Assembly (NCBI GenBank): GCA_013152275.1
Contig: JAADGS010000018.1
Span: 11,896-75,895 of the forward strand
DNA: 64,000 nucleotides
Source: Actinomycetota bacterium
GTDB taxonomy: Bacteria; Actinomycetota; Acidimicrobiia; Spongiisociales; UBA4744
Direction: 5' to 3'
Shown: one piece after another, positions 7,158 to 63,961 of the stretch
Numbering within the stretch: position 1 is the stretch's first letter
Layout: every line of letters starts with the position of its first letter
Position numbers and translations under genes: made by a program
Notes under the pieces: generated by a model
Told to the model about the DNA's origin: nothing
What the model saw: the letters and a program-made list of their open reading frames with translations, nothing else
Database searches by the model: none

Positions 7158-7196
7158 TTCGGGGTCTGCAGATAGGCCAAGAGGGCCCATACCTGC

Positions 7197-7248
7197 GAAC
7201 CCTGGGTTCGTAGGGGTCGTGGCGACCCCCCTGAGCCCAGGGTTCAAC
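7197..7248. repeat. REP-like palindromic element, copy B (inverted relative to copy C)
   Basis: GAACCCTGGGTTCGTAGGGGTCGTGGCGACCCCCCTGAGCCCAGGGTTCAAC. Essentially the reverse complement of copy C. Confidence 0.8.
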
Positions 7249-7251
7249 GTT

Positions 7252-8001: not shown

Positions 8002-8056
8002 GTTGAACCCAGGGCTCAGGGGGGTCGCCACGACCCCTACGAACCCTGGGTTCAAC
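8002..8056. repeat. REP-like palindromic element, copy C
   Basis: GTTGAACCCAGGGCTCAGGGGGGTCGCCACGACCCCTACGAACCCTGGGTTCAAC. Confidence 0.8.
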
Positions 8057-8071
8057 GGTTTGGGGGGTGCT

Positions 8072-10250: not shown

Positions 10251-11302
10251 GACGGCGGATCATGGGCCGTCTGCTCGCATCCGACATTCCATTGGAACGC
10301 GCTGCCGTGACCAGGGCAGCCACGGCGATACTCCGAGATGAGGCACCGCTCGCCCCGCCGGGGACCGCCCTGCAGGTCGCCGACGCGCTCGTCGGGCTGG
10401 GCCCGCTCGAGGCGCTTCTGCGGGACCCTGCGGTCTCCGACGTTCTCGTGAACGGTCCCGAGGACATCTGGGTCGAACGCTCCGGCGGACTGTCGCGCTC
10501 CGACGTCGTGTTCGCCGACGATGCCGAGATCGTCGCCGCGGTCGAACGGGTCGTAGGTCCGCTCGGGTTGCGGATCGATCGGGCATCGCCGATGGTGGAT
10601 GCGCGGCTCCCTGACGGCAGCCGCCTCCACGCGGTCGTTCCTCCTGCCGCGGTCGATGGCCCGATCCTCGCCGTTCGACGGTTCACCGCGGCCGTTCCCG
10701 ATCTCGATGCGCTCATCGCCGCCGGGTCCATTCGCAGGGAAGCCTCCGAACTGCTTCGGGCTGCGGTCGGGAATCGGGAGTCGATCGTCATCTCCGGGGG
10801 CACCGGCACCGGCAAGACCACGCTGTTGAACATCCTGTCGACCGAGATCGCGGGATCCGAACGGATCGTGACGGTGGAAGACGCCGCCGAGCTGAGGCTG
10901 AGCGGCCATGTCGTTCGTCTCGAGGCGAGACCCGCGAATGCAGAGGGAGCAGGGGAGGTGTCGCTGCGAGAACTCGTTCGGTCCGCACTGCGTCTCAGAC
11001 CCGATCGGATCATCCTCGGTGAGGTCAGGGGGCCCGAGGCGCTCGACATGATCACCGCCATGAACACGGGGCATCGCGGCTCGATGTCGACGGTGCATGC
11101 CAACAGTCCCGAAGAGGCGATGTGGCGTCTGGAGACCCTTGCGCTCTCCGGTTCCCGGCGGGTCTCCGAGGTCACCGTGCGGCGGCAACTCTTCGCGGCG
11201 ATCGACTATGTCGTCCAGGTCGAGCGCCAGGCCGGTGGACGTCGAGTGGCCACGATCGTGAAGGTCGCGGGAGAAGCGCTCGATCAGGTGTACGCATGCT
11301 GA
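10241..11302 (+). CDS. tadA: Tad/Flp pilus assembly ATPase (CpaF/TadA, type II/IV secretion NTPase)
   Basis: Walker A GGTGTGKTT, Asp box, His box and Walker B typical of the CpaF/VirB11 family. GGGAG SD. Confidence 0.9.
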   Translation: MDVRRRIMGRLLASDIPLERAAVTRAATAILRDEAPLAPPGTALQVADALVGLGPLEALLRDPAVSDVLVNGPEDIWVERSGGLSRSDVVFADDAEIVAAVERVVGPLGLRIDRASPMVDARLPDGSRLHAVVPPAAVDGPILAVRRFTAAVPDLDALIAAGSIRREASELLRAAVGNRESIVISGGTGTGKTTLLNILSTEIAGSERIVTVEDAAELRLSGHVVRLEARPANAEGAGEVSLRELVRSALRLRPDRIILGEVRGPEALDMITAMNTGHRGSMSTVHANSPEEAMWRLETLALSGSRRVSEVTVRRQLFAAIDYVVQVERQAGGRRVATIVKVAGEALDQVYAC

Positions 11303-19277: not shown

Positions 19278-20513
19278 ATGGAAATCGTCTTCCTTCGCCA
19301 CGGTGAGTCGACCGGCAACGCTTCGGGCCTGATCCAGGGGCGCGGCTCCAGTCCCCTGTCCGAAAGGGGCATGGCGCAGGCCGAAGTGGTGGCCCGACGC
19401 CTCACTCGAGGCAGGCCGTTCGATCTGATCGTCAGTTCGGACATGGAGCGAGCGGTGCAAACGGTCGGTGCGCTCGGTCTCCCGTTCGAACGCGACGCAG
19501 CATGGCGGGAGATGGATCTGGGTGCGTGGGATGGTGTGCCGATCACGGAGGTGGCCAAGCGCTTTCCCGAAGAGCTGGCCGCACTGCGGCGCGGAGATCC
19601 GGTGCCGATCGGGGGTACCGGGGAGACGTTCCCCGAGTTCACGGCCAGAGTCCGCGGCGCAATCGAGCGTCTCGTCGAGAAGATGGAAGGGAATGGACGT
19701 GTCCTCGTCTCGGCGCACGGTGGGGTCATCGAGCGAGTCATGGCCATCGTGATCGGCCGACCGCGTGCGGTTGCGTTCGCGGGTCGGGTGGCCAACACTT
19801 CGCTGACGACGGTTTCCGTGCGACCCTCTGGGATGCGTGTCGACCACTACAACGACACCACACACCTCGGGCCGGTCTCCGGATGGGCGGCCGAGCGTCT
19901 CGCCGCGGGGGATACGGTCGTCGCTCTCGTCCGCCACGGGCAGACCGCCGCCAACGATTCGGGCATCTGGCAAGGCCACTCGGACGGCGGCATCGATGAG
20001 GAGGGCAGGCGTCAGGCGACCCGATTGGCCGGCTGGCATGGGACCTTCGAAACGCTGTACTCGTCACCGCTCGGGCGGGCGCTCGAGACGGCTGCCCTGT
20101 TGCGCGCGGATGGCGTCCCCGTGGTCGTGCCCGGTTTGATGGAGCTGGGGATGGGGAAGTGGGAGGGGCACACCGTCGAGGAGATCAAGGCCGGGTGGCC
20201 CGGCGCCTGGCGGGCGATCTACGACGAAGGGGAGGACATTCCCAGGGGCGGTGACGGAGAGACGTGGAGTGGGATGGTTGCCAGGGTGTCCGAGGCGATC
20301 GGCGATATCGCTCGAGCGCATCAGGGCCGGCTCATCGGGGTGGTTTCGCACGGCGCCGCGATCCGAGGGTTCTGCTCGAGCCTCATCGGGTTGGACCATG
20401 AGCGCCGTCAGAGCCTGATCGCTCCGGGCAACACGTCGGTCAGCCACATCGTGTTCGGCGCGGACGGGCCGGTCCTCGCCGACTACAACGTCGGCCCCCT
20501 CCAGGTCACTTGA
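19278..20513 (+). CDS. tandem two-domain histidine phosphatase (two PGM-like domains)
   Basis: Two RHG motifs (IVFLRHGES and ALVRHGQTAAN), each followed by a PGM-like fold. The stop codon TGA at 20511-20513 lies inside REP copy D. Confidence 0.8.
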   Translation: MEIVFLRHGESTGNASGLIQGRGSSPLSERGMAQAEVVARRLTRGRPFDLIVSSDMERAVQTVGALGLPFERDAAWREMDLGAWDGVPITEVAKRFPEELAALRRGDPVPIGGTGETFPEFTARVRGAIERLVEKMEGNGRVLVSAHGGVIERVMAIVIGRPRAVAFAGRVANTSLTTVSVRPSGMRVDHYNDTTHLGPVSGWAAERLAAGDTVVALVRHGQTAANDSGIWQGHSDGGIDEEGRRQATRLAGWHGTFETLYSSPLGRALETAALLRADGVPVVVPGLMELGMGKWEGHTVEEIKAGWPGAWRAIYDEGEDIPRGGDGETWSGMVARVSEAIGDIARAHQGRLIGVVSHGAAIRGFCSSLIGLDHERRQSLIAPGNTSVSHIVFGADGPVLADYNVGPLQVT

Positions 20514-20563
20514 ACCCAGGGCTCGTATGCGTCGTCACGACCCCCCTGAGCCCTGGGTTCAAC
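20510..20563. repeat. REP-like palindromic element, copy D
   Basis: TTGAACCCAGGGCTCGTATGCGTCGTCACGACCCCCCTGAGCCCTGGGTTCAAC. It is the reverse complement of copy A. Confidence 0.85.
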
Positions 20564-20580
20564 GGATGTGGGGTGTGCAC

Positions 20581-20634
20581 TTGAACCCTGGGCTCGTATG
20601 CGTCGTGACGACCCCCCTGAGCCCTGGGTTCAAC
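20581..20634. repeat. REP-like palindromic element, copy E (tandem with D, 17-bp spacer)
   Basis: Near-identical to copy D. Confidence 0.85.
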
Positions 20635-20644
20635 GGATAGGGCG

Positions 20645-30601: not shown

Positions 30602-30609
30602 GGGTCTCG

Positions 30610-30702
30610 CATCTCGTACTTCGTATCTCGTGCCCCGCACTTCGTACGCGACATGGCACTGCTCCAAGACCGCGAGGCGGGTGAAACGGCGCTCGCCGAC
30701 CG
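30610..30702. repeat. Heptad-array/CGCTCGCC intergenic element (degenerate copy)
   Basis: CATCTCG TACTTCG TATCTCG TGCCCCG CACTTCG TACGCG (period 7), then GGCGCTCGCCGACC at 30687-30702. Lies between hpt and ftsH. Confidence 0.65.
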
Positions 30703-42794: not shown

Positions 42795-42945
42795 ATGATC
42801 ACCTCCTGATGCGTCGTCGGGCGGGTTGTGCGCGTGACGGCGGCGCCCGTCGCCCAGGAGCCTGTTGGGCAATGCAAGGCACGTATCTCGACGACCGTGC
42901 AGCGCCCTTCGATGCAGTGAGCGACCGTGCTTTGTCACGCCAGAG

Positions 42946-43021
42946 CCGTCGCGCTCGCCCCGCGATCCCGAATCGACCCGAGGGTGCGATACGGAATGCG
43001 AAGCACCGGGTACGAGATGAG
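42946..43021. repeat. CGCTCGCC-core + CGAAG heptad intergenic element (upstream of cooF / DUF2520 divergent region)
   Basis: CCGTCGCGCTCGCCCCGCG ... GCGATACGGAATGCGAAGCACCGGGTACGAGATGAG. Shares its core and heptads with loci at 59.0, 61.7 and 63.0 kb. Confidence 0.7.
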
Positions 43022-43224
43022 TGATGCGTACAGTCGGCGATCCACGCACCGGCGTTACTCAGGAGACTTCTGGGTGGACAACTGGAAACTACCCCATGAT
43101 GCTTTCCACGCTAGCTCCGTACGTGCGTCGGCGTCGGCCTCGACGCGTTCTTGTGACAGATGGTGAGAACGGCGGGTAGCCTGTTGTCCGGTCGGGTACC
43201 GCGGACTCGAACCGGGAGGTTCCG

Positions 43225-48508: not shown

Positions 48509-49708
48509 TCAAGCCCCGTATCTGCGAGGATCGGTCAGCTCGCCGTCGACGGCGAGCGTGCGTTCGAACCCATCGATGCCCGACAGCGTGCCTGTGACGA
48601 TCACCGCGTCCCCGGGTTGGAAGCGCGCTGCCGCGGCCGACGCCACGATCACCTTGACGGTCAGTGGCCCGAACAGATCGGTGTCGATGGACCCGACGTC
48701 GACCGTCACACCTGATTCCGACCGCCCGGCCACGGTGCCGTTCCAGCGGATCTGCCGTCCGGCGTACCGTTCTTCGAATATCGCCGCCATCTGAAAGCTG
48801 AGCAGATGACCTCCGAAGAGCACATCGGCGACATCGAGCGGTTTGGGTCCGACCGGCGGGGTGTCGGGTGTGGGCTCGGGGACGGTGTCGCTTGGTTCGG
48901 CCGGTGGGGAGATCGTCACGAACTCGCCCGTCTCCGAGTCGAGTATCTCTTCGGAAGTGACCACTTCGGCCGGTGGGGAGATCGTCACGAACTCGCCCGT
49001 CTCCGAATCGAGTATCTCCTCGGAAGAGACCACTTCGGCCGGCGGCTCCTCGGCAAGAAGCTCCAGCCCGTCCCACGGCTGGAACAGGTCCGGTGCCGGC
49101 GGAGTCGAGTCGTCGTAGCTGGAGCCGACTCTGTTCGTTGGCATGTGCTCGCGTTGTGCGAGGACCGTTCCCGTGGCGAGGAGAAGGCGCGCGGTCTTCA
49201 CGATCCTGTCGAGCTTGCGTTCGAAGATCCTGCGCTCGAACACGATGGTGTCATCGGTGATCTTCGCCGCCGGGAGTGTGACCAGGAGTTCGCGCACCGC
49301 CTGGCGCATCGGAGGGGTAAACACGGTCGCCAGTCGCTCCGGGTCGCTGGTCTTGACCGTGAACACCTCGTCGAACGCCTCGTCTCCCGTCTCTGCGTCC
49401 TGGGCTCCCAGGAACTCCGAGACCTTCGAGAGCCCGGTCTTGCGGGTCACCTGCAGGCCTACGCCGAGCGACGGGTACCGAACGCGATACCTCGTCGATT
49501 TCGTGTTGCCGGATGAGCGCACCTCGATCGTGAGGCCAAGTCCTTCGACCTCACCTTCGATCCTCGGAGGGGCCATGGCACTCTTCTTCTGATAGGCGAC
49601 GCCGAGCAGGCGAGCCGCCCCTCGCCACGTCGCGGTGACCTGCCTGTTCGAGACCAGAGACAGGATGCCGATGCCGATTGCGATGGCGATGATGAGAGGG
49701 AAGTCCAT
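48509..49708 (-). CDS. hypothetical membrane-anchored protein with 23-aa tandem duplication
   Basis: N-terminal TM helix. Internal repeat SPPAEVV[ST]SEEILDSETGEFVTI x2, encoded by two 69-bp DNA copies with 3 mismatches. No recognised domain. Confidence 0.6.
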   Translation of the reverse strand: MDFPLIIAIAIGIGILSLVSNRQVTATWRGAARLLGVAYQKKSAMAPPRIEGEVEGLGLTIEVRSSGNTKSTRYRVRYPSLGVGLQVTRKTGLSKVSEFLGAQDAETGDEAFDEVFTVKTSDPERLATVFTPPMRQAVRELLVTLPAAKITDDTIVFERRIFERKLDRIVKTARLLLATGTVLAQREHMPTNRVGSSYDDSTPPAPDLFQPWDGLELLAEEPPAEVVSSEEILDSETGEFVTISPPAEVVTSEEILDSETGEFVTISPPAEPSDTVPEPTPDTPPVGPKPLDVADVLFGGHLLSFQMAAIFEERYAGRQIRWNGTVAGRSESGVTVDVGSIDTDLFGPLTVKVIVASAAAARFQPGDAVIVTGTLSGIDGFERTLAVDGELTDPRRYGA

Positions 49709-53530: not shown

Positions 53531-53550
53531 GCCCGGCGGCCACCGGGTCG

Positions 53551-53687
53551 GTATTTCGTACTTCGTACTTCGTACCGGGCAGCCCTCGGATCGTCCACGG
53601 TTTGCACGTAGCGCGGCGCCGCGACGCTCGCCGCACGGTGTTGGGTCGACATGAGGCCGCGATGCCGAATACCAGGTACCAGGTACC
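53551..53687. repeat. Heptad/CGCTCGCC modular intergenic element (downstream of clpC1, upstream of BMP gene)
   Basis: GTATTTCG TACTTCG TACTTCG TACC ... GCGACGCTCGCCGCACGG ... CCGAATACCAGGTACCAGGTACC. Confidence 0.7.
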
Positions 53688-53815
53688 TCCCACTGCGAGC
53701 CTCTCCGGAGGCCGTCTGATCGGCCGTCCCGCTTCTTCGCTTGCGCCGGGAGTGGCTACACTCATTCGTAATTCTGGGCCCTATGGCCCCACTACCCACT
53801 ACTCAGGAGGGCGTG

Positions 53816-56512: not shown

Positions 56513-57621
56513 AGGTGCGCCGAATGCTGATGAGTCTCCTGGCGCCGATCGGAGCACTGGCGTTCTCGTTCGTCGTCGCGTCCGCCGCCTTGCTGCTGGT
56601 GGGAGTCAACCCGTTCACGGCGTTCGCGGAGATGGGCAAGTTCGCCTGGAGTGAGGCGTCGCTGGTCTCCATCGCCAACCGGACGGTGCCGCTGTTCCTC
56701 TCCGGCCTGGCCGTCGCCATCGGGTTCAAGATGGGACTGTTCAACATCGGTGTGGAAGGCCAGTACCTTCTGGCGGCCGTGTTCGCCGCCTACTTCGGAG
56801 CACTTGTCAACCTGCCTCCGGTGCTGCACGTTCTCTTCATCATCTTGGTCGCGATGGTCGTCGGAGCCCTGTGGTCCGGCATCGCCGGCGTCTTGAAGGT
56901 CAAGCGGGGCGTTCATGAGGTGATCAGCACGATCATGCTCAATGTGATCGCGGTCGGGCTGGTTGCCTGGCTCCTGGCGAACTTCTTCCGAAAGGTCGAT
57001 CCGGGGGACCTGAACATCAAGACGGCAGAGCTGCCGCACAGCGCCTGGTTCCCGTCGTTGAATCCTCTGATGAGCGCCATCGGATTGAAACCGCCTCCCG
57101 GTCCCTCCATGCAGGGCTTTCTGCTCGTCGCGATCGTTGTCGGGATCATCTACTACCTGCTCGTCTGGCGCAGCCGGTACGGATTCGAGCTGCGGTCTTC
57201 CGGCATCAACCCCGACGCGGCACGGATGAGCGGCGTCAATCCGGACCGGATGGTGGTCCAGACGATGCTCCTCTCCGGGGCGCTCGCCGGACTCGTCGGC
57301 ATCTCACCGCTCCTCGGCTTCTTTCACAGGTATACCCAGGATTTCTCGACGGGACTCGGGTTTACGGGCATCGCCGTCGCGTTGCTGGGAAGGAACCATC
57401 CGGTGGGTATTGCGTTCGGCGCGTTCCTCTTCGCTCTCATGGATCGTTCCGCGCTGATCCTCGATCTGAAGGGCATCCCGAGAGAGATCGTGACGATCAT
57501 CCAGGGGGTCGTCGTGCTCGCCGTCGTGATCGCCTACGAGATCGTCACGCGCATGACCCAGCGCCAAGAGGTCACCGCTGCAGCAGAGGCGGCGAAGGCG
57601 GACCTGGAGAAGGTGGCATGA
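56509..57621 (+). CDS. ABC transporter permease
   Basis: ATGA overlap. Multi-TM branched-chain/nucleoside permease family. Confidence 0.85.
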   Translation: MKVRRMLMSLLAPIGALAFSFVVASAALLLVGVNPFTAFAEMGKFAWSEASLVSIANRTVPLFLSGLAVAIGFKMGLFNIGVEGQYLLAAVFAAYFGALVNLPPVLHVLFIILVAMVVGALWSGIAGVLKVKRGVHEVISTIMLNVIAVGLVAWLLANFFRKVDPGDLNIKTAELPHSAWFPSLNPLMSAIGLKPPPGPSMQGFLLVAIVVGIIYYLLVWRSRYGFELRSSGINPDAARMSGVNPDRMVVQTMLLSGALAGLVGISPLLGFFHRYTQDFSTGLGFTGIAVALLGRNHPVGIAFGAFLFALMDRSALILDLKGIPREIVTIIQGVVVLAVVIAYEIVTRMTQRQEVTAAAEAAKADLEKVA

Positions 57622-58883
57622 AGATCTGGCAGCCGAAGACGAAGCTGGGACGCAGGCTGTGGGCCGCGACCCTGTGGGGGTCTTCGGGGATCCTCGTTCT
57701 CGCCGTCGTGCAATCCATCGCCGGTACGCAGGAGCTGACGTCACATGGAACGTTCGGTGCGGCACTTCGGATGGCGATGCCGATCATGCTTGCCGGTCTC
57801 GGTGCCGTGTACTCGGAACGATCCGGTGTCGTCAACATCGGTCTCGAAGGCATGATGATCATGGGCACCTGGTTCAGTGCGTGGGGCGCGTGGCAGTTCG
57901 GGAATCCCTGGTGGGGTGTCCTCTTCGGCATCCTCGGCGGGGCGATGGGCGGTCTGATCCACGCCATCGCGACCGTTACCTTCGCCGTCGACCATATCGT
58001 GTCGGGGGTGGCGATCAACATCCTGGCCGCAGGGGGCATGCGCTTCCTGTCGGCGGTGTCCTACGCGCCGGACAGCGGCGGTGGTGCCACCCAGTCGCCG
58101 CACGTGTCGGGGGTCGGGACGTTCAGTGTGCCCTTCCTGGCGGGCGGGAAACTCTTCGGTTGGAAGAGCCCCGACTTCTTCGGATGGCTCGAAGCGCATC
58201 ATTGGTTCTTCCTCTCGGACATGGGAGGGTTGCTGCGCGGGTTGACCGGCGGTCTGTCCTGGTTGACGGTGCTGGCTCTGCTTCTCGTCCCCGCAACGAT
58301 ATGGCTGTTGTGGAAGACACCGTGGGGTCTCCGGCTGCGTTCGTGCGGGGAGAATCCGTACTCTGCCGAGTCGCTGGGTGTGTCGGTGCTGAAGATGAAG
58401 TACTACGGCGTTGTCATTTCCGGAGCGATGGCCGGTCTGGGAGGCACGATGCTGGTCCTCGTGCAGGCCGGTATCTATCGGGAGGGCCAGACCGCAGGGC
58501 GAGGCTACATCGGTCTCGCCGCGCTGATCTTCGGAAACTGGAACCCTGCGGGAGCGCTGGCCGGCGCGTCACTGTTCGGATTCGCCGACGCCCTCCGGCT
58601 GCGATCCGAAGAGGCCGTGCACGCGCTCTTGTTGTTCATCGCCGTGCTGCTCGCGGTGCTGTTGTTCTGGATGCTCTACCGGCGTAGCTGGATCCCGGCG
58701 GCAGCGACGGGGTTCTTCGCCGTGGTGTTCCTCATCCTGTATCTCACGGTCCCTGTCGTCCCCACACAGTTCATCGCCTTCACGCCGCACCTCACGACGC
58801 TGTTGGTGCTGGGGCTTGCCACGCAGCGGCTTCGCATGCCCGCGGCCGATGGCCTGCGATACCGGAAAGGGGAAGCGGTCTAG
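57618..58883 (+). CDS. ABC transporter permease (second)
   Basis: ATGA overlap. Multi-TM. Confidence 0.85.
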   Translation: MKIWQPKTKLGRRLWAATLWGSSGILVLAVVQSIAGTQELTSHGTFGAALRMAMPIMLAGLGAVYSERSGVVNIGLEGMMIMGTWFSAWGAWQFGNPWWGVLFGILGGAMGGLIHAIATVTFAVDHIVSGVAINILAAGGMRFLSAVSYAPDSGGGATQSPHVSGVGTFSVPFLAGGKLFGWKSPDFFGWLEAHHWFFLSDMGGLLRGLTGGLSWLTVLALLLVPATIWLLWKTPWGLRLRSCGENPYSAESLGVSVLKMKYYGVVISGAMAGLGGTMLVLVQAGIYREGQTAGRGYIGLAALIFGNWNPAGALAGASLFGFADALRLRSEEAVHALLLFIAVLLAVLLFWMLYRRSWIPAAATGFFAVVFLILYLTVPVVPTQFIAFTPHLTTLLVLGLATQRLRMPAADGLRYRKGEAV

Positions 58884-58888
58884 CTTTT

Positions 58889-59000
58889 CTTGGTACCTCG
58901 TGCTTGGTGCTTGGTGCTTGGTGCTTGGTACTTGGTACTTGGTACTTGGTACTTGGTACTTGGTACTTGGTACTTGGTACTTGGTACTTGGTACTTGGTA
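58889..59000. repeat. 7-bp microsatellite (CTTGGTA/CTTGGTG) x ~16 uninterrupted
   Basis: CTTGGTA CCTCGTG (CTTGGTG)x3 (CTTGGTA)x11. Intergenic between convergent genes. Confidence 0.95.
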
Positions 59001-59010
59001 CCGGCAGAAG

Positions 59011-59070
59011 CCGCGACGCTCGCCCTACGGTCTTGGTGCCGGGCAGGTTGCGATACGAAATACGAAATAC
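59011..59070. repeat. CGCTCGCC-core + CGAAA heptad element adjacent to microsatellite
   Basis: CCGCGACGCTCGCCCTACGG ... GCGATACGAAATACGAAATAC. Confidence 0.75.
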
Positions 59071-59130
59071 TTTCTCGGCAACCGTCGAAGCGTTCCCGAC
59101 GGATGACCTCGTATCAACCGAGAACCGGGG

Positions 59131-60021
59131 TCACTTGGTCGGGCGGCCCCAGAATTCCAGTTCGGCGATCGCCAGCTCGTTGTACGGGGTCTTACCGTCG
59201 ACGGACTGTGACGCATACGTCGAGGTGACCTTGAAGGTGATCTGGGTCGTGCTGAAGCTCGTCACCGCGATGGGCTGCGCCCTCTTTGTGTCTTCGAGTT
59301 GGTCGATGAACGGGGCGTCCGGTAGATCATCGAAATCGATCTCGAAACCTTTGACCCTGTAGTTCATCTTGAACTTCTTGTCGTCCGAGACGTTCTTGAA
59401 GACGATCGTCTGCAGCGCGTACGCCTGTGCGAACGTCACTTCGATCTCGGCGCCCTTGCCCTTTGCCGAGGCGTCGTTCCAGTACGTGCTGTCTTGACCG
59501 TCGAAGAGGTTGTCACAGGAGAGGCTTTCGTTGAGCTCACTGGAGCAGCGCCAGTCGATCGGGACGATCTTCACCGGGATCGCAGCCACGGTCGTCGATG
59601 TGGTGGAGGACGTCGGTGGGACTGCAGGAGTCTTGTTGCCGAGCAGCGAGTTGACCGCGAACGCGAGGATGGCTACGACCGCGACCGTCCCGAAGATCAC
59701 TGCGAGGGCGCGCGCTCCGGCGGTGGTGCGGATCATGGGCTGGGGAGCGACCGGCAGTGGACCTTGGGTGATGCGGGCGCCACACTGCTCACAGTGACGG
59801 TTCGTGGACGGGTTGGAGGCTCCACATGAGGGGCAGATCACAGCGTCGACCATCGGGGAGACCGAGACAATCGGTTCGATCTCTTGGCCCTCTGGAGGCT
59901 CATCGAGGTCGAACGTTTCGTATCCCGCGGATTGGATCGAGCCGATCCACTGTCCGCAGTTGGGACAGAACTCCTGTTCCTCGAAGACCTCTCCACAGTT
60001 GCTGCATGTGATCTGTGCCAA
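59131..60021 (-). CDS. membrane protein: N-terminal double zinc-ribbon, TM helix, C-terminal discoidin/F5-8-type-C-like domain
   Basis: CSNCG...CPNCG and CPSCG...CEQCG pairs. TM (ALAVIFGTVAVVAILAFAV). C-terminal ...YNELAIAELEFWG typical of galactose-binding-like/discoidin domains. Confidence 0.65.
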   Translation of the reverse strand: MAQITCSNCGEVFEEQEFCPNCGQWIGSIQSAGYETFDLDEPPEGQEIEPIVSVSPMVDAVICPSCGASNPSTNRHCEQCGARITQGPLPVAPQPMIRTTAGARALAVIFGTVAVVAILAFAVNSLLGNKTPAVPPTSSTTSTTVAAIPVKIVPIDWRCSSELNESLSCDNLFDGQDSTYWNDASAKGKGAEIEVTFAQAYALQTIVFKNVSDDKKFKMNYRVKGFEIDFDDLPDAPFIDQLEDTKRAQPIAVTSFSTTQITFKVTSTYASQSVDGKTPYNELAIAELEFWGRPTK

Positions 60022-61478: not shown

Positions 61479-61509
61479 CACGGTGCCCCTCTTGCCGGTT
61501 GCCGAGCAG

Positions 61510-61737
61510 GTACTTCGTTCCTTGTACTTCGTATCGCGACCTGCCCGGCGCCGAGACCGTGGGGCGAGCGTCGCGGCTCCTGATAGCCGTTCGCCGGCTG
61601 CTCAACTGCCGCAACCCTGCCAGGCGTTTCTGCAAGGCATCGAGAGCGGTGATTGTGGGAAGGAGCCACACTCGCCCTGAGGTGCTGCGGCAGTGGTGGC
61701 GGCGGTACCGAATACGAAGCACCGGGTACGAAGAGCG
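61510..61737. repeat. Composite palindromic element: [TACTTCG heptads]-[GGGGCGAGCGTCGCGGCTCC]-~70 bp-[GGAGCCACACTCGCCCTGAGG]-[CGAAG heptads]
   Basis: Heptads at 61510-61536 (+) and 61699-61737 (-). Inverted 22-bp cores at 61557-61580 and 61652-61673. Lies between radA and disA. Confidence 0.8.
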
Positions 61738-61794
61738 AAGCGAGCCCGGCTGATCCCCGTAACCGTTCCGGGGCCGCACTAGTCTTCACCAGCA

Positions 61795-62856: not shown

Positions 62857-62970
62857 CGCGTCCGCCAGGCAACGCACACGGCAGTAGCCGGTTTCGGGCC
62901 TTCCGCGGCCGACCTTCAGCAAGAGCCACCACGCTCGTCCCGCGGTCTCGACGCCTGGCGGGTCGTGACA

Positions 62971-63098
62971 CGCAGTACGAAGCACGAGAAACGTACGGAT
63001 GCGGCGGGCCTCCGGCTTCTGGCGAAAGCCGCTACGCTCGCCCCGGCGTCTCATGGCGACTGCCGCTGCGCAACGAAGTACGAAATGCAAAGCACGGG
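62971..63098. repeat. CGCTCGCC-core + CGAAG heptad element, upstream of carD
   Basis: CGCAGTACGAAGCACGAGAAACGTACGG ... GCCGCTACGCTCGCCCCGGCG ... CAACGAAGTACGAAATGCAAAGCACGGG. Confidence 0.75.
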
Positions 63099-63148
63099 TG
63101 AGTGCAGCGAGACCACCGAGTAGAATCCCCCTCCCAACCTGAGGATCT

Positions 63149-63961
63149 ATGGCTACACCGAAGAAACCTGCCGCGAAGAAAACGGCTGCCAAGCCGGCGG
63201 CGAAGAAGCCTGCGGCGAAGAAGCCTGCGGCCAAGACCGGCACGAAGACGGCGGCGAAGAAGCCCGCGGCCAAGAAACCTGCGGCCAAGGCTCCTGCGAA
63301 GACGGCGAAACCCGCAGCAAAGAAAGCGGTTGCGAAGACGGCGGCGAAGAAACCTGCGGCCAAGGCTCCTGCGAAGACGGCGGCGAAGAAGCCTGCCGCG
63401 AAGAAGACAACCGCCAAGACGGCGGCGAAGAAGCCCGCGGCCAAGAAACCGTCGATCTTCAGCGTCGGTGACAAGGTCGTGCATCCACAACACGGTGCCG
63501 CGATCATCGTCAAGAAAGTGCGGCAGACGGTTGCCGGCTCCCGCCAGGAGTACTTCGTGCTCGAGATCGCGACGGAGCAACTCACCGTCTTCGCCCCGGT
63601 CGACACGATCGAGGAAACGATTCGCCCGGTGATCTCCAAGAATCAGGCACGCAAGGTTCTTGCGGTCTTCAAAGATCCTCCGCAGGAGGCAGGGAGCAAC
63701 TGGAGCCGGTGGTACAAGATACTGAATGAGAAGATGACCAGCGGGGACATCTACCAGGTCGCCGAGGTCGTGAGGGATCTCACCTACGCGCAGCAGATCA
63801 AGGGAATCTCCCCGGCTCTCAAGAGGATGCTCTCCCGTGCACGACTGACGTTGACATCCGAGTTGCAGTTTGCGCTGAACGTGGGTGAGGAAGAAGCGAC
63901 CAAACGCCTCGACCGGGCTCTGCCCACCGTGGAGGAGCCGGACGCCGGCGGTACGACGTGA
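63149..63961 (+). CDS. carD: CarD/CdnL-family RNAP-binding transcription regulator with N-terminal Lys/Ala/Pro-rich histone-H1-like repeat extension
   Basis: Residues 1-~95 are AAKKPAAKK repeats, encoded by 18-bp DNA tandem repeats at 63166-63440. They are followed by [16 protein letters not shown]...[25 protein letters not shown], which matches the CarD RID and C-terminal domains. Confidence 0.8.

Follow-up and report, generated by a model that had tools for sequence, protein, structure and literature searches.

The window analyzed here (the whole 64-kb stretch of DNA) carries a heptanucleotide tandem array of 16 units at positions 58889 to 59000 of its forward strand, in the spacer between two convergent genes. 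The gene upstream of the array (57618 to 58883, + strand) encodes a BPD_transp_2 permease and is the last gene of a Bmp-type ABC transporter operon. This open reading frame (ORF) was annotated from its orthologues, which contain PF02653 and lie in the gene order Bmp, ABC ATPase, and two permeases; the deduced protein is identical to NOY54654.1 (421/421 residues). The second ORF (59131 to 60021, - strand, stop codon at 59131 to 59133) encodes a protein with a double zinc ribbon, a TM segment, and a discoidin/NADase-type domain, and its product matches NOY54655.1. The convergent orientation given in the original prediction was thus confirmed. The flanking proteins identify the source as an uncultured, Acidimicrobiia-type actinobacterium, whose nearest named relative is "bacterium BMS3Abin02." The two stop codons enclose a spacer of 247 nt (58884 to 59130), of which the array occupies 112 nt. 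The permease stop codon TAG (58881 to 58883) is separated from the array by the 5 nt CTTTT. A distance of 6 bp had been predicted, which is correct for the first base of the array, the sixth after the stop codon, but not for the intervening sequence. From the end of the array to the stop codon of the zinc-ribbon/discoidin gene, the distance is 130 nt.

The array was characterized by direct reading of the sequence, TRF, and pattern counts. Its units follow one another head to tail and without spacers in the order CTTGGTA, CCTCGTG, three CTTGGTG, and eleven CTTGGTA, exactly as predicted for 16 units of 7 nt. It is uninterrupted but, contrary to the prediction, not perfect, because unit 2 (CCTCGTG) differs from CTTGGTR at two positions. 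Read in the GTAC phase, the array resolves into two blocks, i.e., GTACCTC, GTGCTTG four times, and GTACTTG eleven times, followed by GTACC running into unique sequence. TRF reported a period of 7, 16.1 copies, 94% matches, no indels, and a score of 184, which makes this the largest short-period array in the window. The two-unit pattern TACTTSGTACTTSG, with up to one mismatch, gave 12 matches compared to 0.02 expected, and GTACNNNGTAC gave 14 compared to 0.10 expected. An origin of the array by chance is ruled out.

Searching the spacer (58884 to 59130) for regulatory sequences revealed neither promoter-like sites nor a canonical intrinsic terminator consisting of a hairpin and a U-tract. A small hairpin, CCGTCG-9 nt-CGACGG, is located on the - strand at 59082 to 59102 and begins 28 nt downstream of the stop codon of the - strand gene; from its position, it could be the 3' end hairpin of this gene. 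The same stem is present in L214, one of the related sequences described below. A scan of the window against Rfam at the gathering score returned only a tRNA, and a scan of the locus at E values up to 5 returned only low-complexity miRNA noise far below threshold. ORFs that run through the array and would encode LGTWYLV repeats were considered as genes and rejected for lack of support, since the unit contains no stop codon and the array is consequently open in all six frames. The array alters neither an ORF nor a promoter. It is wholly untranslated and lies between convergent genes, so that neither a reading frame nor a promoter can be displaced when its length changes.

An intergenic repeat element of ~85 nt, composed of a core (GCCGCGACGCTCGCC..CGGTCT) and a (TACGAAG)-like arm, immediately adjoins the 3' end of the array. 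The order of segments after the array is CCGGCAGAA, GCCGCGACGCTCGCCCTACGGTCTTGG, TGCCGGGCAGGTT, GCG ATACGAA ATACGAA ATAC, and TTTCTCGGCAACCG. The first of these (59001 to 59009, + strand), read directly, is the junction between the left arm and the core; GTACCGG(G)CAG is also found at 53573 to 53583, after the left arm of a second copy of the element. The segment GCCGCGACGCTCGCCCTACGGTCTTGG (59010 to 59036, + strand) is the GC-rich conserved core of ~27 nt, identified by an inverted match to positions 61524 to 61582, by alignment, and by nhmmer. The heptad segment (59050 to 59070, + strand), identified by TRF (59053 to 59070) and alignment, is the right arm of 2.6 units and the inverted counterpart of the left arm. 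Over 59 nt, this copy (c1) is 90% identical, in inverted orientation, to positions 61524 to 61582, and positions 59002 to 59083 matched the hidden Markov model of the family with an E value of 1.7e-18.

To define the family, a profile was built from seven copies and the window was searched with nhmmer. Eight copies were detected, with E values between 4e-9 and 3e-20, at 59.0, ~53.6, 61.5, 61.7, 62.9, 63.0, 42.9, and 30.6 kb. All of them lie between genes; the + strand carries six and the - strand carries two. Copy c2 (53549 to 53694, +; TRF and nhmmer) has both arms, a left arm of 3.6 units (GTATTTC GTACTTC GTACTTC GTAC) and a right arm of 2.6 TACCAGG units. The remaining copies were located by nhmmer. 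Copy c3 (61496 to 61590, -) consists of the core and the right arm, is 90% identical to c1, and stands head to head with c4 (61654 to 61745, +). Copies c5 (62914 to 63002, +) and c6 (63019 to 63109, +) are arranged in tandem, and c7 (42935 to 43028, +) and c8 (30606 to 30700, -) are located farther upstream in the window. Every copy has a sequence-conserved core followed by 2.6 to 6 mostly degenerate TACGAAG-type heptads, and the 16-unit array is an outlier in comparison with these arms. Inverted heptad arms on both sides of the core are present only in c1 and c2. In c2, the left arm (GTAYTTC)3.6 runs into GTACCGGGCAG, and the array ends with GTACCGGCAG. Because the left arm of c2 ends in the same junction and the core directly adjoins the array, the array was identified as the left arm of c1. 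This agrees with its prediction as an expanded member of the intergenic repeat family, as it adjoins a core and a right arm and its junction GTACCGG(G)CAG is common to c2. Its unit, GTACTTG, differs by a single base from GTACTTC, the canonical heptad of the family, also as proposed.

No conserved RNA secondary structure of the family was found on either strand (RNAalifold consensus, ~-3 kcal/mol), and the fold of c2 was no better than that of shuffled sequence. Given the lack of coding, promoter, Rfam, and conserved-structure signals and the occurrence in both orientations, these results mark the family as a DNA-level, REP/MITE-like repeat and not as a structured RNA. A search of 185,579 species-representative genomes with the family core ACCGTNNGGCGAGCGTCGCGGC gave 12 single matches in unrelated taxa, which we read as chance.

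Sequences of the same locus were obtained from relatives. The closest, a Logan contig from SRR25425416 (L001), is 99.8% identical to the window over 2,578 nt. It enters the array from the side of the discoidin gene and the core and ends after 30 nt of pure TACCAAG, as expected of a k=31 graph assembler, which we take the Logan assembler to be, when a pure tandem tract exceeds k in length. The array is thus present in a second, independent data set, and the figure of 16 units comes from the assembly of the window alone. A JGI sequence (3300003886; L213) with 97.6% nucleotide identity and a permease identical at 414 of 421 residues has no array. After its permease stop codon, CTACGCAC is followed by four unlike heptads (GTACCTG GTACCCG GTACGTG GTACTTC), GG, and the core. 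In an ENA sequence (ERZ23498652; L214) with ~89.5% nucleotide identity, the site contains two GTACCTG and two GTACTTG units, an insertion of ~150 nt, and then CTTGGTACC and the core, i.e., 2+2(+1) heptads, and the right arm has grown to 4.5 units. The sister species, represented by 11 assemblies (L002 and L138 to L147; ~90% nucleotide identity), has the core and the right arm without a left arm, and this region is invariant among the assemblies except for two SNPs and one 4-nt insertion. A more distant relative (L003 to L005; 74% amino acid identity) carries heptads of a different sequence, GGTTCTY. No other period-7 arrays were found in ~20.9 kb of the sister species or in L002 to L005.

At the orthologous site, close relatives other than L001 carry zero to four units, which shows the 16-unit array to be a recent, lineage-specific expansion. 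The GTACTTG unit itself is older here, since the ancestor common to the window and L214 had two or more copies, and both arms change quickly in number and sequence. The original prediction of a slippage hotspot variable between isolates is supported between lineages, with four unlike heptads in L213, 2+2 in L214, and none in the sister species.

Comparison of other spacers revealed that c2 is absent from the orthologous clpC-bmp spacer of the sister species. Positions 53537 to 53709 of the window contain the two-armed c2, and the sister species has only a short hairpin there (L138, 16239 to 16245). No recognizable target-site duplication was found at the c2 site when the window was compared with the sister species. 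At the same spacer, L003 carries an additional Vut_1 gene and a divergent heptad-armed copy. At clpC-bmp, intergenic content is replaced far more rapidly than the genes, whose identity is ~90%. The radA-disA spacer differs completely between the window and the sister species.

The window also contains other repeats. A second, unrelated intergenic family is an ~54-nt near-perfect palindrome, TGAACCCAGGGCTC...GAGCCCTGGGTTCA, which looks REP-like and occurs in five copies (4 to 57, 7196 to 7249, 8004 to 8057, 20511 to 20564, and 20582 to 20635), two of them in tandem (TRF, 71-nt repeat, 1.9 copies). Downstream of disA, a Lys/Ala-rich coding repeat (63148 to 63473) probably encodes a histone-like/HU-type tail (AAKKPAAKK). 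It shows periodicities of 15, 39, 42, and 54 nt in the window and a 27-nt repeat of 15 copies in the sister species (L138, 6733 to 7143), and the length of the repeat region in the protein thus differs between species. A 69-nt tandem duplication (48896 to 49042; 2.1 copies, 96% identity) lies in frame within a - strand gene (48509 to 49708) and corresponds to a duplication of 23 amino acids.

Taken together, the array is very probably a genuine noncoding heptanucleotide long simple sequence repeat (LSSR), a candidate variable-number tandem repeat (VNTR), that was born by slippage in the left arm of an intergenic repeat copy. The element concerned has a GC-rich core of ~27 nt and a (TACGAAG)-like arm, preceded in some copies by an inverted (CTTCGTA)-like arm, and is scattered between the genes of an uncultured Acidimicrobiia-type actinobacterium and its relatives. 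Replication slippage within the left heptad arm of c1 would have amplified the one-base variant GTACTTG and the secondary variant GTGCTTG to 11 and 4 copies, respectively, in this lineage; close relatives keep zero to four. The two-block structure (GTGCTTG four times, GTACTTG eleven times) is consistent with stepwise amplification of variant units.

The folding potential of the array was analyzed for both strands. As + strand RNA, the array alone has a predicted free energy of -54.6 kcal/mol (z score, -9.0) and one dominant structure, a G·U-rich hairpin of ~50 bp. The corresponding values are -20.4 kcal/mol for the - strand RNA, -24.2 kcal/mol for a canonical (CUUCGUA)16 RNA, and ~-7 kcal/mol for the array as single-stranded DNA; the whole spacer as + strand RNA reaches -105.6 kcal/mol (z score, -5.5). 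The + strand RNA folds on itself because GGUACU pairs with GGUACU, with two G·U pairs around a GUAC palindrome. The predicted hairpin begins 5 nt after the permease stop codon and is followed by CCGGCAGAAG, without a U-tract. At the same place, the unexpanded L213 has a hairpin with an inverted-repeat core of ~8 bp built from its four heptads, and in the sister species a hairpin of 12 bp, unrelated in sequence, occupies the position. Only one molecular consequence of the array can be predicted. If the transcript of the permease operon reads through the stop codon, it would carry the long G·U-containing hairpin 5 nt downstream, which could act as a 3' end barrier or terminator lacking a U-tract and replace the shorter hairpins of the relatives. 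From the predicted fold and its position, a role as a U-tract-less 3' end hairpin of the transporter operon is plausible.

This raises the alternative that the array was selected as a 3' end RNA element, in which the (CUUGGUA)n hairpin terminates or stabilizes the mRNA of the permease operon and insulates the convergent genes. The predicted hairpin is strong, strand specific, and well defined, it begins 5 nt past the stop codon, and a hairpin of some kind, formed by different sequence, occupies this position in all lineages examined. However, it lacks a U-tract and is far longer than necessary, an inverted-repeat hairpin with a core of ~8 bp suffices in close strains, and the other copies of the family have no conserved structure. 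The latter, combined with the occurrence of copies in both orientations, argues against an RNA-level role of the whole element. We regard this alternative as unlikely. The extra length of the hairpin may be selectively neutral, and its strong fold, which could follow by accident from the quasi-palindromic nature of the GGUACU unit, need not have been selected.

A different alternative is that the heptads are protein-binding repeats of a MITE/REP-like element. The GTAC-phased arms would then provide subterminal sites to which a transposase or some other DNA-binding protein attaches, with the array as an overgrown binding platform. The inverted arms surround a core that is conserved in sequence and not in structure, c2 is present or absent between sister species, and intergenic copies turn over rapidly. 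Furthermore, an element in the unrelated metagenome contig L122 has inverted ends flanked by inverted GTACTTG heptads, and the same ends are found inside the arm of L214. Against this stand the lack of a target-site duplication at the c2 site, the lack of a left arm in most copies of the family, the lack of an identifiable transposase in the 64-kb window, and the absence of the core from the 120 other heptad-bearing contigs listed in the survey described below. On balance, protein binding as the explanation for the array is doubtful.

The insertion in L214 (5216 to 5365, ~150 nt) lies inside the heptad arm and has the inverted ends GAGGACGCGCGGATAGGG ... CCCTATCCGCTGATCCTC. In L122, the same inverted ends (reverse complement, ~10490 to 10700) have (GTACTTG)3 on one side and (CAAGTAC)2 on the other, inverted relative to each other. 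The insertion is a MITE-like element that carries or targets GTACTTG heptads. As a speculation to which we attach little weight, deep-sea Acidimicrobiia-type actinobacteria could harbor a so far undescribed class of intergenic element, mobile or bound by protein, that consists of the GTAC-phased arms and the core. The heptads would then be recognition sites, e.g., for a transposase, a nucleoid protein, or an RNA-binding protein, and expansion of the arm would tune the 3' end hairpin that RNA of one strand forms behind the upstream operon. A hint at a wider heptad-associated mobilome comes from a related element with GGATAGGG-type inverted ends (L214 and L122), for which the same heptads are either cargo or insertion target.

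The occurrence of the heptad in other organisms was surveyed by scanning metagenomes for three units of CTTSGTA, which returned at least 120 contigs (L018 to L137) with GC contents from 29% to 71%. The family core was absent among the 120 matches listed, and only the heptad part of the profile aligned. In viral contigs, CTTSGTA gave 8 matches compared to 5, 18, and 33 for three permuted heptads of the same composition. The contigs fetched contained 164 period-7 arrays compared to 7 to 10 for each of the periods 5, 6, 8, and 9, and the excess is still about five-fold after subtraction of the ~118 arrays selected by the search itself. The idea that CTTSGTA is a special cross-phylum motif was rejected, as permuted heptads are as common or commoner in viral contigs, the core is absent from the contigs listed, and period-7 arrays in general dominate in the contigs fetched. 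G-type arrays were not longer than C-type arrays among the matches listed (Mann-Whitney test, P = 0.18), and therefore self-pairing of the G-type unit is not obviously driving expansion and was rejected as its driver. A literature search with exact heptad-dimer strings returned no relevant mention of the GTACTTG/CTTGGTA unit.

Two further observations were made in these contigs. First, 13 of the 132 arrays among the matches listed form inverted pairs in the order (TACSAAG)n, spacer, (CTTSGTA)n, with spacers of 1 to 141 nt. The opposite order was found in none of them; it is the order of the family in the window, i.e., (CTTCGTA)n, core, (TACGAAG)n. Second, putative lipoprotein or secreted-protein genes on unrelated metagenome contigs contain in-frame (CTTCGTA)n or (TACCAAG)n arrays among their first ~20 codons (L021, reverse strand, ~2890 to 2960; L022, 3790 to 3900 and 5000 to 5110; and L084, 253 to 330), as in MPRLRTSYFVLPTFAALLALLATAC and MKKNNVPSTKYQVPQKIVLLATYSLLFIALTGC. 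Adding or removing a single unit would put these genes out of frame, and they are thus possibly phase variable.

Two other explanations of the array were considered. An assembly artefact, in which the tract was created or missized by the assembler, has to be considered since a pure tract of 77 nt is hard for short-read assemblers and L001 failed to cross the array. Nevertheless, the array is entered from unique sequence in two independent assemblies, its internal variant units lend it a defined structure, and relatives have shorter forms of this arm at the corresponding site. We consider an artefact improbable. That the array is a contingency or phase-variation locus, in which a change in copy number switches a neighboring gene, is very improbable: its length and purity are sufficient for slippage, and the heptad occurs inside the 5' ends of putative lipoprotein or secreted-protein genes in L021, L022, and L084, but the position of the array downstream of both stop codons and between convergent genes, with no start codon or promoter-like site nearby, effectively refutes this explanation, as a 7-nt change can alter neither flanking protein.

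Origin by slippage from a repeat arm places the array among several known systems. Heptanucleotide repeats are the best known of the long SSRs found in bacteria. Heptamers are reported to be over-represented among bacterial long SSRs; they are mostly intergenic, are explained by polymerase slippage, and differ in length and sequence from one close relative to the next (PMC4692102; Mrazek 2007, as cited in PMC4679880). Actinobacteria are named among the taxa rich in repeats of 5 to 11 nt (Mrazek, Guo, and Shah 2007, as cited in PMC4679880 and PMC4692102). The array resembles the LSSRs described there (Mrazek, Guo, and Shah 2007): its 7-nt unit is repeated head to tail, it is longer than expected by chance, it is intergenic, and it is attributable to slippage. 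It differs in being traceable to the arm of a specific repeat element.

Genome-specific heptamer families include intergenic GGGAATC in Xanthomonas and GGGGAYT in Nostoc (PMC4692102), the TAACTGA repeats of Beggiatoaceae, Cyanobacteria, and Bacteroidetes and the cyanobacterial STRR heptamers (PMC4679880), and the GGACCGG/MTYCTGA elements of Geobacter metallireducens (PMC2700814). Their arrays usually comprise 2 to 5 units (~4) and rarely 26 to 43 (PMC4692102, PMC4679880, PMC2700814). Like the family in the window, they use one favored heptad per genome at many intergenic sites, sometimes in inverted pairs, and vary extensively in length and sequence at one locus between close relatives. In contrast, the unit in the window has a different sequence, is not G-rich and thus forms no G-quadruplex, and does not lie just upstream of start codons, and its heptads form the arms of a larger element whose GC-rich core is conserved. 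Compared with the cyanobacterial STRR and TAACTGA repeats (CCCCAGT, TTGGTCA, CAACAGT, TAACTGA), the array (CTTGGTA/GTACTTG) is alike in kind but not in sequence.

The family as a whole shares with REP/BIME and MITE-like repeats (REP, ERIC, Correia, RUP) its short length, multiple copies, strictly intergenic location, both orientations, inverted arms, and presence or absence between close species; such repeats often lie between convergent genes, where their hairpins can stabilize 3' ends. In contrast to them, no GTAG-type head, RAYT/transposase, or target-site duplication was identified for the family in the 64-kb window, and it has arms of tandem heptads and no significant conserved hairpin. 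VNTR/MLVA loci (Mycobacterium MIRU-VNTR; Coxiella MLVA with 6- to 7-nt units) are likewise intergenic tandem repeats; their unit number differs between strains and can thus serve as a strain marker. For the array, the variation observed is that between lineages of an organism that is uncultured, and MIRUs have a much longer unit. In Haemophilus influenzae, the 7-bp repeats in the hmw1A/hmw2A promoters are phase variable. These tracts and the array are alike in unit length and the presumed slippage mechanism; those tracts lie in promoters or coding regions and control expression, whereas the array follows two stop codons.

The array, derived from the arm of a dispersed intergenic repeat, thus belongs to a known kind, the heptanucleotide long SSR or VNTR, and is unsurprising. 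It changes no gene product. The locus is a likely VNTR strain marker for an uncultured hydrothermal actinobacterial lineage, at which short-read assemblies break, as one public contig does. It also offers a clean, datable case of the birth of a long heptanucleotide microsatellite, from an arm of 3 to 4 units to 16 units within less than ~2.4% nucleotide divergence, and adds an actinobacterial example linked to a repeat element to the little-studied excess of 7-nt repeats in bacteria.
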